A stretch of DNA of 21,924 bases from a virus (lineage: Duplodnaviria; Heunggongvirae; Uroviricota; Caudoviricetes). Where the stretch lies: IMG/VR virus record IMGVR_UViG_2609459833_000005, positions 1 through 21,924 of that record, one strand, 5' to 3'. The position numbers were made by a program, and so were the translations under genes. The notes beneath the pieces were generated by a model. That model worked only from the letters and a program-made list of their open reading frames with translations, made no database searches and had not been told where the DNA came from. This document shows, piece after piece, positions 6,778 through 8,728 of the stretch; within the stretch, counting starts at the first letter, position 1, and each line of letters begins with the position of its first letter.

Positions 6778-6966
6778 TTATCCAGCCGGTGTTTCGTTAT
6801 TCAGGTACAGCGATACTTTTTTTACCGGGAGGCATTCACCAGAAATTTTTTGCTCGTCTCTTGCCTGGAGGCAGGATTCTTTACTGGCATAAATTCCGGT
6901 AATCACATTCTGTGATTCACCCGTTATAAGAAAAACCGTCATCATCAGTGCAAATGCTGAAGTCAT
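6778..6966 (-). CDS. Small hypothetical protein, positional analogue of Qin YdfD
   Basis: 62-aa ORF overlapping the dicB-like stop (ATGA overlap); hydrophobic N-terminus MTSAFALMMTVFLITG. Assignment by synteny only. Confidence 0.4.
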   Translation of the reverse strand: MTSAFALMMTVFLITGESQNVITGIYASKESCLQARDEQKISGECLPVKKVSLYLNNETPAG

Positions 6967-7151
6967 TGACGCTCTCCGAAAATACCAAGTTCAAGAAGAG
7001 CAATTCGGGAAAGTATGGAATTATCATTGAGCAGATAAGGCTCATATTTCCTCATATTAATGGCATCTTCAGTAAACTCCCGGTTACTGAGCAGAACACC
7101 AATATCAAAACAACCTTCAGACGTATTAACGTTTGGTAATAACGTTTCCAT
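6963..7151 (-). CDS. dicB: DicB-like cell division inhibitor (Kil-type)
   Basis: 62-aa ORF METLLPNVNTSEGCFDIGVLLSNREFTEDAIN... closely matches the remembered N-terminal half of E. coli DicB (MKTLLPNVNTSEGCFEIG...TEDAINKRK); same length. Confidence 0.7.
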   Translation of the reverse strand: METLLPNVNTSEGCFDIGVLLSNREFTEDAINMRKYEPYLLNDNSILSRIALLELGIFGERQ

Positions 7152-7329
7152 TATCGCGTCCTCAACAATGAATTTTGTGATGCAGTGCCTGGTGCCTCCA
7201 GGTGACGTTAACCAGTTAACAATTAACGCCGGGTTAGTTGATGCTCGTTACGCCAGTAAAAGACCGCCTTACTGCTTTAACTGTTCCGCGTGCGCATAGC
7301 CGCATTCACCGCATCACAAAATTCACTTT

Positions 7330-7385
7330 AAAAAGGGTGGCAGAGCAGTCACGGAGTAGAACTGATGCCACCAAATACTACACAT
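7330..7385 (-). ncRNA. dicF: DicF-like small RNA (ftsZ-targeting sRNA of Qin-type prophages) ending in an intrinsic terminator
   Basis: Minus strand reads uuugguggcaucaguucuacuccgugacugcucugccacccuuuuu: stem GGUGGCA/UGCCACC plus U-run, nearly identical to remembered DicF; sits about 180 nt upstream of dicB-like gene as in Qin. Ends approximate. Confidence 0.55.
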
Positions 7386-7685
7386 GGGTATTGTGGCGGG
7401 GCTGTCACTTAAGCGTATGGTCAACCTGACGACCCGGTGCATTTTCTGGAGCAATGGAGGAAGCCCCAGCCATACTTACCGCCGCGCCATTTCGCGGACT
7501 GCCACAACCGGAAGTGCACGGTCGAAGAAATTTAACGACAAGCTTTATATGCAAAGGAATCTCGCCGTGCGCTTTCGTGTTGTGTGCCTGCTTTTAACCA
7601 CGTCAGGCGAGGTGGTTTCCGTCATTCCCCAATAACAGGAAATCTGTATAATCTGGATATCCCCAACAACAGGAAGGTGTTTTAT

Positions 7686-7844
7686 ATGGTGGTTCAAAAG
7701 AATTGTTCAGGTACTGGTAAGCCTGCGGACAGGGCGGACATTCCGAATACCAGGAAACATATACCTGAGAAAAACATTCGACCAAAACCATCTCCAGCTC
7801 CTTCAGAGGAGAGGGGGAACAGCAACAATCAAACAAGCAGGTGA
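7686..7844 (+). CDS. Possible 52-aa hydrophilic Pro/Lys/Arg-rich small protein immediately upstream of the 2-TM gene
   Basis: ATG at 7686 preceded by SD aggaagg (7671-7677, 8-nt spacer); stop 7 nt before the next start. Low-complexity product, coding status uncertain. Confidence 0.3.
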   Translation: MVVQKNCSGTGKPADRADIPNTRKHIPEKNIRPKPSPAPSEERGNSNNQTSR

Positions 7845-7850
7845 TGATAT

Positions 7851-8297
7851 ATGGACCGGGATGATATTCTTGACAGGGTTTTATATGGTTATTTTCTTGA
7901 ACAACTATTCTCTGTAGCGACTGGTCGTCTCGATAAACTTTTCTCAGTGGTGAGTATTATCCTCGGTTCATCTGTCATTGGTGGATTTATTCCTGAAGTT
8001 TCTGGAGTTCTCATTGTTGTGATAGCAACCGTTCAAACGATTTACGGATTCGGACAAAAGTCAGGTAACGCAATGAGAAAATCCGCAGAATATCTGCAGC
8101 TTTATGATGATGCAGAAAAATATTCCGATTCGGAATTGAAAATGCAGTTAAAGCTCCTGGAAAAAACAGATGATAATATTTGGTCGTCGCTTAAAGATAT
8201 CGCAATCTTAAAAACCCAGATCAAAATAGGAATCTCCGTAGAACAACAAGAGAAACTGTCTGCAAAATCCAAATTGATGCGATTCCTTTGTGGTTAG
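7851..8297 (+). CDS. Hypothetical two-transmembrane-helix membrane protein (candidate superinfection-exclusion or abortive-infection moron)
   Basis: 148-aa ORF in AT-rich DNA; SD aggtga 7 nt upstream; two adjacent hydrophobic helices (LFSVVSIILGSSVIGGFIPEV, SGVLIVVIATVQTIYGFG) then a charged helical C-terminal domain. Opposite strand to all flanking early genes. Confidence 0.7.
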   Translation: MDRDDILDRVLYGYFLEQLFSVATGRLDKLFSVVSIILGSSVIGGFIPEVSGVLIVVIATVQTIYGFGQKSGNAMRKSAEYLQLYDDAEKYSDSELKMQLKLLEKTDDNIWSSLKDIAILKTQIKIGISVEQQEKLSAKSKLMRFLCG

Positions 8298-8395
8298 GAA
8301 TACCCAGATTGTTAAAGAGCATGCCGAATGCTTACCCGTGTCCGGCGAACGTATTCCACTTCGCCTGTGGAGAACTCTTTAATTACTAACCTTCA

Positions 8396-8635
8396 TCAGT
8401 CAGAGTTTCTTGCTAACCAGCGACGCGCGCCAGCTTCCGTTTTAAACGTTTTGCTTCTGGTATACGTCATCGCGGTAAACGTGCCGTCCAGGTTGGGGAA
8501 TACTCCACATACCAGAGATTCGTTGTTGCCAAGCTCGATAGTATCCATGCTGACCTCATTTCCCCTTAACGCCGGGGTAGCGGAACTAAAAACCTGCTGC
8601 GCTGTTATACAAAGTGTTCCCGCCGTCATGTTCAT
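8396..8635 (-). CDS. Hypothetical early protein, first ORF of the leftward operon
   Basis: 79-aa ORF directly downstream of the leftward operator/promoter region; basic C-terminus TRSKTFKTEAGARRWLARNSD. Overlapping plus-strand ORF 8328-8657 judged less protein-like. Confidence 0.45.
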   Translation of the reverse strand: MNMTAGTLCITAQQVFSSATPALRGNEVSMDTIELGNNESLVCGVFPNLDGTFTAMTYTRSKTFKTEAGARRWLARNSD

Positions 8636-8728
8636 ACGCCTCGGGCTGGCTACTTAACCCCTGACCACTGCCGGGTAACTCGAAGTATTGCCCTGCATTC
8701 TGTGGGGAGGGTGGGTGATGAATAAACA

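Follow-up and report, generated by a model that had tools for sequence, protein, structure and literature searches.

A predicted pseudoknotted leader RNA directly upstream of DicF in the early-left operon of a lambdoid prophage

The locus

DicF is one of the oldest known bacterial small RNAs (sRNAs). The publications consulted on its locus treat the neighbouring region as an untranslated spacer, DicF being cut from the same transcript (PMC5069750; PMC9438474), and they mention neither a conserved fold in it, nor its presence in places without DicF, nor a separate function for it. Here we analyse this region in a lambdoid prophage represented by the IMG/VR virus record IMGVR_UViG_2609459833_000005 (positions 1 to 21,924; this whole stretch of 21,924 nucleotides (nt) is called the window below), in which the interval 7390-7850 separates DicF on the minus strand from a plus-strand gene for a protein of 148 amino acids (aa). 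Read along the minus strand, the early-left region presents a cI-like repressor, relB/relE, ydfA, the 148-aa gene in opposite orientation and the interval, followed by DicF (7335-7386), dicB (6963-7151), ydfD, exo, xis and int; the ydfA homologue (DUF1391, 8396-8635) lies on the far side of the 148-aa gene from the interval. A prophage beside potD in E. coli SW070917 is 99.9% identical to the window over 7200-8000.

The interval is a composite of three parts: a structured RNA next to DicF, a deletion scar, and the 5' region of a plus-strand cassette to which the 148-aa gene belongs. That the structured RNA and this composite anatomy are both real is, in our opinion, very probable.

A structured RNA next to DicF

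The DicF-proximal part, 7386-7577 on the minus strand (about 192 nt), encodes, as judged from its conservation and covariation, a structured RNA, which is the conserved leader of the early-left (dicB-type) transcript and is situated directly upstream of the DicF hairpin-terminator. It has a helix P0, a segment of variable sequence in its interior, and a core built as a four-way junction that includes a pseudoknot. The adjoining DicF sRNA (7335-7386, minus strand), whose 3' hairpin is the intrinsic terminator, falls outside the interval; it matches the Rfam model RF00039 with 62 bits (gathering score 48, E = 1.2e-11), its terminator hairpin is recovered by single-sequence folding, and the same model has no match within 7387-7850, the one at 7335-7386 being the sole one. 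Homologues were collected by anchoring on the DicF 3' end, which gave 98 unique IMG/VR loci; among these, the blocks upstream of DicF are 85-100% identical per 10 nt and the 5' half of DicF 53-81%, so that by this sequence measure the element exceeds the 5' half of the sRNA in conservation.

The core (7390-7508, minus strand like all parts of the element) comprises helices P1 to P5. Helix P1 joins 7501-7508 with 7390-7397 (GUUGUGGY with RCCACAAC), P2 is a hairpin at 7482-7497 (CCGCG with CGCGG), P3 joins 7478-7481 with 7435-7438 (CGGU with ACCG), and P4 is a variable hairpin at 7446-7469. Helix P5 pairs 7427-7434 with 7400-7407 (GGGUUGUCA with UGACAACCC) and closes a loop of 19 nt (7408-7426), which is almost invariant, with three variable positions. 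Within this loop, CCAURC (7415-7420) forms the predicted pseudoknot with GYAUGG (7470-7475) in the internal loop between P3 and P4. Helix P0 encloses the variable segment, its 5' strand (7564-7577, RNA 5'-CGAAAGCGCACGGC-3') pairing with a 3' strand (7509-7522, RNA 5'-ACCGUGCACUUCCG-3') located directly 5' of helix P1; across copies, the 5' block sits about 40-105 nt upstream of its partner. A covariance model built for the element (R1) matches the window at 7386-7524 with 133.8 bits (E about 2e-31), and P0 stretches the element to 7577.

Support for the fold comes from compensatory change. In an alignment of 28 diverse sequences (A3), 98.1% of the cells of the core helices are paired and 12 pairs are changed on both sides; none of 500 shuffles reaches the observed value, and controls in which the pairing was slid give 23-53%. 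The model-fitted alignment A6 (53 distinct sequences) behaves in the same way: 96.8% of its cells are paired, both sides have changed in 14 pairs, not one of 500 shuffles reaches the observed value, and slid controls lie at 33-59%. Helix P5 occurs in six mutually compensated versions (UUGUCA, UUGCCA, UAACCA, CUACCA, UCACCA, UUACCA), and the pseudoknot itself covaries, GUAUGG/CCAUAC standing against GCAUGG/CCAUGC in copies of the type found in phage P1. For P0, 85.9% of the cells are paired in alignment A5, with 57 cells changed on both sides versus 19.5 in shuffles and slid controls at 19-46%, values to be read in the knowledge that the partner segment was located by complementarity as well as homology; its compensatory variants include CCGUGC/GCACGG, GGAAUGC/GCAUUCC, CUGUGC/GCACAG and UAAGUGCUCUC/GAGGGCAUUUA. 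RNAalifold independently returns P1 to P5, and the minimum-free-energy fold of the window copy by itself contains the same helices together with the DicF terminator hairpin. Frequent G-U pairs assign the RNA to the minus strand, in the sense of DicF, because they would turn into A-C mismatches if the other strand were the RNA.

A preliminary description of this DNA had considered that the interval might hold a processed leader for DicF, and had proposed a structure and covariation analysis across homologous prophages. The idea was right in so far as the DicF-proximal 190 nt or so are a conserved leader, and the covariation in 7386-7577 is strong; it fell short in that this is far more than a spacer, namely a covariation-supported structured RNA, and in that the same RNA is also present where canonical DicF is absent (phage cdtI, phage P1).

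Distribution and genomic context of the element

The element was found in 4391 of 5426 complete E. coli genomes, with a median of two and a maximum of eight copies per genome and with 378 copies on plasmids; none of the 12 matches listed has an annotated feature over it. About 115-135 nt of it occur without canonical DicF in phages cdtI, Ayreon and 2H10, in Stx2c phages, in Salmonella phage F1055 and in phage P1, and further copies came from Citrobacter, Trabulsiella, Erwinia and Izhakiella as well as from a second scan of IMG/VR. In all cases the element is in the sense orientation of early operons. The viable Qin-type phages Tritos, mEp460 and 640R1 share the order CI, ydfA-C, element, DicF terminator, dicB, ydfD, exo, xis and int, the element thus standing between ydfC and DicF. 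In cdtI a near-consensus pL (TTGACA-16-CATAAT), which has a palindromic operator, is located about 260 nt upstream of it; a strong hairpin with a U-run follows the element, the first genes coming only afterwards. In phage P1 the -10 hexamer annotated for the C1-controlled P1ban promoter precedes the element by about 20 nt, and a 7-bp GC hairpin with a U-run succeeds it there, ahead of tRNAs, tciABC and ban.

An intrinsic terminator 52-99 nt after the P5 loop was detected in at least 265 of 279 copies; inspected by eye, most of the remaining 14 also have a terminator that was missed by the pattern, all except the divergent copies L212 and L233. The sequence of the terminator hairpin varies widely, from DicF to the minimal UUCG-type hairpin of phage P1, which speaks for a terminator of whatever sequence, rather than any given sRNA, as the conserved partner. 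Annotation shows no N gene in cdtI, Tritos, mEp460, 640R1 or the near-identical SW070917 prophage (L001), and a comparison of the PHROG N families with seven proteins (six early-operon proteins from 640R1, mEp460, Tritos and cdtI, and one from Salmonella phage F1055) gave no match.

The GenBank record of phage P1 contains a 'dicF-like region' (AF234172, 68791-68892), which overlaps the P1 copy of the element (L125, 2478-2606), and a sequence similarity between phage P1 and the dicF locus was therefore already noticed by that annotation. The similarity is, however, to the leader element and not to DicF, phage P1 having a different, minimal terminator hairpin at this place. A weak second R1 match in phage P1 (19 bits; L125, 3824-3967, plus strand, between upl and tciA) shares only the 5' flank AAUGCUCUUUCCGUUGCGG and helix P1 ACCGCAAC with the element, its interior being different; going by this resemblance, the ban operon may contain a distant paralogue of the element.

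Some copies show additional features around the element. In Erwinia tracheiphila (L162), Izhakiella (L163) and Trabulsiella (L157) the terminator hairpin is enlarged (GGCGGUACC...GGUACCGCC, then a U-run) and encloses AGGAG-N-AUG, that is, a Shine-Dalgarno sequence and a start codon within the terminator stem. Just upstream of the element, L162 and L163 have a look-alike of the 3' half of a tRNA (GGTTCAATTCCTGCCACCGC), in which ARAGORN finds no tRNA. Beyond the element's terminator, cdtI has a long inverted repeat, AAAACAGAGAAGA ... UUCUUCUCUGUUUU (L126, 2680-2770, plus strand); the motif CAAGAGCAYC within it is conserved in the Erwinia-type copies (L162, L163, L174) and in L170, and occurs as CAAGAGCAC in L212, so that the repeat may, by this conservation, be a further structured domain of the cdtI-type leader.

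Coding content and the deletion of ydfC

That the interval holds no convincing protein gene, as had been stated beforehand, agrees with our searches. Three open reading frames (ORFs) of at least 60 aa in the mechanical ORF list overlap it, namely one of 83 aa (7384-7635, plus strand), one of 86 aa with a GTG start (7584-7844, plus strand) and a Cys-rich one of 77 aa (7603-7836, minus strand); compared with Pfam and PHROG they gave nothing significant (best E = 0.55), and in the 99.9% identical RefSeq genome the NCBI annotation pipeline PGAP places nothing between dicB and the 148-aa gene. The 77-aa and the 83-aa ORF, both without a family match, were rejected as genes. In the left half, coding is ruled out by compensatory base-pair changes and by single-nucleotide insertions or deletions between homologues, which in helix P4 occur even between close relatives. 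Several frames of the right half are free of stops on both strands, and their openness is for this reason uninformative.

The equivalent interval of the Qin prophage had been said to carry the small genes ydfA/B/C. This needs correction on two counts, since in Qin too the roughly 340 bp between the end of ydfC and dicF are non-coding and unannotated in K-12, and since ydfC has been deleted in the window, where no ydfC or ydfB homologue is found upstream of dicF. The deletion follows from a three-way alignment (A1) of the window, K-12 and phage 640R1: window positions 7387 to about 7580 are homologous to the DicF-proximal 200 nt or so of the Qin gap, positions of about 7585-7615 match the sequence just upstream of ydfC, and the junction reads CCACCTCGCCTGACGTGGTTAAAAGCAGGCA-CACAAC-ACGAAAGCGCACGG, between which points 640R1 and K-12 carry ydfC and about 130 nt more. 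The resulting scar (7578 to about 7620), matching the stretch just upstream of ydfC in 640R1, is joined directly to the P0 strand, the deletion ending exactly at the edge of P0 (7578/7579), so that the element was kept intact. Other lineages (L133, L014) have the same junction.

A Shigella flexneri copy of the element (L148, at about 6447, minus strand) is truncated, with the sequence from upstream of ydfC, GGTTAAAAGCAGGCACACAAC, joined further in at GCAAAATGGCGCGG; this removes P0, the 5' strand of helix P1 and half of P2, and the downstream hairpin also looks degraded.

A plus-strand cassette in a cargo slot

The remainder of the interval, from about 7621 to 7850, is the 5' region of a plus-strand cassette. 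It contains TGTATAAT (7645-7652), a candidate extended -10 of the sigma-70 type (TGnTATAAT motif), which is invariant in 12 of 12 distinct upstream variants from 39 IMG/VR loci with the 148-aa gene, the protein itself being only 89-100% identical among those loci. A scan of 6900-8700 for -35/-10 consensus promoters found none, TGTATAAT having no -35 match, and the promoter call hence derives from conservation; on this ground TGTATAAT is plausibly the promoter of the cassette. It is flanked by two direct repeats of 21 nt (7621-7641 and 7655-7675, core TCCCCAAYAACAGGAA, spacing 34 nt, 76% identity), for which a function as operator would be speculative. The stretch 7561-7672 is common to more than 1100 E. 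coli genomes at 80-96% identity.

A candidate leader ORF of 52 aa (MVVQKNCSGTGKPADRADIPNTRKHIPEKNIRPKPSPAPSEERGNSNNQTSR, 7687-7844) follows, preceded by the Shine-Dalgarno sequence AGGAAGG at 7671-7677 and ending with TGATGA 6 nt before the ATG of the 148-aa gene. In a diverged form of 48 aa the ATG, the Shine-Dalgarno sequence and the reading frame are all preserved despite a 12-nt insertion or deletion; between the two forms, five of nine changes are synonymous, as are all three type-distinguishing changes in the shared C-terminal part. Against its being a gene, a third variant has deleted it through recombination between CAAGCAGGTG repeats and kept the 148-aa gene, and this stretch is open in further frames as well. 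Neither the exact ATG-start product nor the 48-aa variant is present among about 15 billion predicted proteins, and the 52-aa ORF has no family match. Weighing these sequence features, we would put the chance of a real gene close to, though somewhat short of, an even one.

The cargo gene itself (7851-8297) encodes a SLATT-like protein of 148 aa with two transmembrane segments, which belongs to phrog_6315 (E = 6e-24), a family of unknown function. Its similarity to the NCBIfam family SLATT_4 (E = 0.014) amounts to 15.2 bits against a cut-off of 55, it has no match in Pfam or PADLOC, and UniRef names an identical protein 'SLATT domain-containing protein'. In prophage Sp6 of E. coli O157:H7 Sakai the stretch 7561-7672 precedes a different plus-strand gene, the 171-aa ECs_1504 (L124, 2587-3102), which has no family match, and the candidate -10 element has there the weakened form TTGTTAAT; both this gene and the 52-aa ORF start just past the end of the shared promoter region, and the flank downstream of the slot is also similar in Sp6, as judged from similar small ORFs. 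A constant upstream region combined with a variable gene suggests that the space from ydfA to the DicF leader is a cargo slot, filled by different genes in different prophages and here by a SLATT-like membrane protein. Sp6 has otherwise lost DicF, dicB and most of exo.

We propose that the cassette would be expressed in the lysogen, with the extended -10 promoter, the possible 52-aa leader ORF and the SLATT-like gene in this order. Two earlier conjectures thereby become narrower. The notion that the interval contains the regulatory region of the two-transmembrane gene applies to 7621-7686 only, with the invariant TGTATAAT and the flanking repeats, where a promoter is plausible; that of small ORFs below the cut-off has led to one candidate, the 52-aa ORF at 7687-7844 with its Shine-Dalgarno sequence and its stop/start coupling to the 148-aa gene, for which the support is suggestive.

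Possible roles of the leader RNA

The position of the element invites an explanation in terms of transcription. We propose that the element RNA would act in cis on the transcription complex that makes it, that RNA polymerase would thereby pass the intrinsic terminator 10-45 nt downstream as well as later terminators, and that this read-through would let dicB, exo, xis and int (or ban in phage P1) be expressed in phages without an N protein. The DicF-type hairpins would then be the checkpoint terminator of the module, and the 3' fragments released from them would have been co-opted as sRNAs. We rank read-through first on account of the arrangement of leader and terminator in phages without annotated N, an arrangement characteristic of processive antitermination modules; the genes beyond the terminator must be expressed in such viable phages, for which read-through is needed. 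By analogy, the element may be a put-like but non-homologous cis read-through element, comparable to put of phage HK022 or to the eps-associated RNA (EAR) of Bacillus, a proposal we hold tentatively and with somewhat less than even confidence. We would be more cautious again in claiming a whole new, put-unrelated class of phage processive-antiterminator RNA, which might be present in about 80% of E. coli genomes, often in several copies, and whose carriers would be P1-type plasmid prophages, Escherichia lambdoids such as cdtI and the Stx2c phages, one Salmonella phage, and prophages from Citrobacter, Erwinia and allied genera, N being annotated in none of those examined.

Several observations weigh against read-through. 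According to published work, transcripts do end at the DicF terminator, which gives rise to the 53-nt DicF (PMC5069750; PMC9438474), so that any antitermination would have to be partial, and a natural leakiness of the terminator could suffice for downstream expression. Neither BLAST nor the covariance model reveals similarity of the element to put. HK022 possesses both putL and putR, whereas R1 finds a single copy in the whole cdtI genome, in the window and in the loci examined for the other prophages, none of these copies being in a rightward operon. In Qin-type prophages the element is about 900 nt away from the promoter, and the divergent copies L212 and L233 have no terminator within 160 nt. 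The window copy, furthermore, departs from the consensus by one C-A mismatch in P0 and one in P5, of which at least that in P0 is common to a lineage of at least 13 loci.

Other readings of the same data have to be considered. The element could be a scaffold for processing or stability, which directs cleavage by RNase E (and RNase III) and so releases the DicF-type hairpin RNA, or which protects the precursor, and which does not act on RNA polymerase. The 5' end of DicF is indeed made by RNase E from a polycistronic transcript and a 72-nt form by RNase III (PMC5069750; PMC9438474), about 17 nt of an A/U-rich linker separate this end from the 3' strand of helix P1, the element and its hairpin-terminator occur as one module, and many variants retain the base of the hairpin stem (UUUGGCGG...CCGCC). 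The linker of the cdtI type is, however, only about 12 nt long, and the hairpin of phage P1 is a minimal one of 7 bp without an sRNA body, such a body being essentially missing from the cdtI copies as well, yet the element is equally conserved; the hairpin loops are poorly conserved, which leaves the element more conserved than its supposed product, and in our judgement a pseudoknotted four-way junction of 190 nt far exceeds known RNase E guide hairpins in complexity. Such a scaffold, the main competitor of read-through, we regard as unlikely. It is rather improbable, in turn, that the element is a free-standing non-coding RNA of about 190-250 nt which appears on induction and acts in trans, be it by protein binding or titration or as a tRNA-like decoy, because it is always part, in sense orientation, of a long operon in which the genes further downstream depend on read-through, because the scan of 6900-8700 found no promoter of its own in the Qin-type arrangement, and because neither a C4, tRNA or tmRNA match nor an evident trans target was seen. 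What speaks for it is phage P1, where promoter, element and terminator have the form of a self-contained sRNA gene, together with the cloverleaf-like fold, the tertiary pairing of loop and internal loop and the almost invariant 19-nt loop, which suggest a macromolecular partner. Phages P1 and P4 use structured RNAs (C4, CI) in immunity, which counts in the same direction.

Decay of a coding sequence (what is left of ydfB/ydfC, or a gene broken by a frameshift), or conservation at the level of DNA only, for instance at a recombination boundary of mosaic modules, is very improbable as an overall account. ydfC has indeed been lost here, mosaic modules meet at this site and the slot holds different cargo genes, and ORFs of 77-86 aa are present. 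For 7386-7577 this reading is nevertheless largely refuted, as far as sequence comparison can tell, by the compensatory double changes in 12-14 pairs, the strand-specific G-U pairs and the single-nucleotide indels of helix P4, by the poor family scores of the ORFs, by a conservation exceeding that of the DicF 5' half, and by K-12 and viable phages, which share the same non-coding stretch of about 190 nt. For 7578-7686 the reading stands.

Whichever role applies, the 'long untranslated region' of DicF, so far treated as a spacer, appears to hold a covarying pseudoknotted RNA, and the same RNA heads the early operons of phage P1 and of cdtI-type lambdoids without annotated N. Two questions are thereby made testable, namely how lambdoids lacking both N and put, and the ban operon of phage P1, pass a terminator at the very start of their early transcript, and how and why DicF-type sRNAs arise from prophage operons. 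If read-through in cis is true, an antiterminator class would explain the passage of the terminator at the start of the early-left operon, and DicF would be recast as a co-opted 3' product of the module's checkpoint terminator. For annotation, the covariance model can serve to locate early-left leaders across a very large group of enterobacterial prophages.

Comparison with known RNA families

In a permissive scan of 7100-8450 with Rfam 15 (4227 families, E up to 10), no family matched the element; the scan returned DicF, a sub-threshold match to STnc100 downstream of DicF, and chance matches to snoRNA and microRNA families, such as MIR535 across 7495-7594 (E = 6.2). A full-text literature search (for the invariant sequences, for 'dicF-like', and for DicF together with structure or antitermination) returned nothing relevant, and some older papers could hold an earlier description. 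The predicted RNA is a new family, absent from Rfam. An identity as tRNA or tmRNA was discarded, ARAGORN being blank in 7200-7900 and the Rfam tRNA matches lying only at 20463-20711; the cloverleaf resemblance to tRNA is topological only. C4 was dismissed likewise, the Rfam scan having given no match to it with E up to 10.

A riboswitch-type attenuator would call for alternative pairing, and by inspection of the DicF-, cdtI- and P1-type copies (no formal search was run) a conserved one was not seen. A switch through a downstream segment 'S3' (AGCGCAC after the terminator, competing with P0) was rejected, as the complementarity is short and fails to covary in L212; in cdtI-type copies the S3 motif appears, by eye, to be part of another downstream hairpin. 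The conserved region 3' of DicF (7286-7297, minus strand) contains AUGCGCACGCGG, a near-repeat of the P0 5' strand GCGCACGG, which was likewise turned down as an alternative partner of the P0 3' strand because of short complementarity and lack of covariation in other element types.

Other RNA loci of the window and of related records were recorded in passing. STnc100 has a strong match at 21543-21748 (plus strand, 143 bits), and its sub-threshold match (7119-7337, minus strand, 30.5 bits, E = 2e-4) extends from just after DicF to the start of dicB; the similarity suggests that the 5' untranslated region of dicB is related to this second prophage RNA locus of the same window. A sok antitoxin RNA of a hok/sok-type locus (16033-16207, plus strand, Rfam 117.6 bits) and three tRNA genes (20463-20711, plus strand) are also present, and the record of phage HK639 (L285) annotates an 'M3-like RNA' after a cII-like gene (37910-37969, plus strand). 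As to neighbouring insertions, the SW070917 prophage carries an IS4 between exo and ydfD (L001, 6165-7511), which is missing from the window (at about 6700).

Among RNAs of phages, the C4 antisense RNA of P1/P7 and the CI RNA of phage P4 offer an analogy, being compact, cloverleaf-like and processed from early or immunity transcripts; location and fold of the element differ from theirs, and complementary target repeats for it were not seen. EAR of the Bacillales is a processive antiterminator RNA and, like the element, is pseudoknotted, measures about 120-190 nt and lies in a long operon before terminators. It differs from the element in host clade and sequence, and also in location, its setting being a bacterial exopolysaccharide operon, where it is placed between genes, and not the early leader of a phage.

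The closest comparison is with put. We derived putL and putR of HK022 from its genome and took the putL-like RNA of HK639 from its annotation; homology of the element to put was rejected, as neither blastn against the HK022 immunity region nor model R1 applied to HK022 and HK639 gave any similarity, and the HK639 sequence resembles HK022 putL, not the element. The put RNA of HK022 has about 70 nt, two stems and conserved segments such as AAACCAUGCGUCGG and GGCGGGYUCAGGAWGARCGGCAAU (the annotated form of HK639 has 126 nt), in contrast to the element with its roughly 190 nt, four-way junction, pseudoknot and P0, which has neither sequence nor structural homology to it. A feature of put is the suppression of termination in cis, dependent on the zinc-binding domain of the RNA polymerase beta' subunit. 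What the two have in common is their place: like put, the element is found in the early-operon leader of lambdoid phages without N, with an early promoter before it and intrinsic terminators beyond it, and its distance from the promoter in cdtI, about 260 nt, compares with about 270 nt for putR (PMC9378689).

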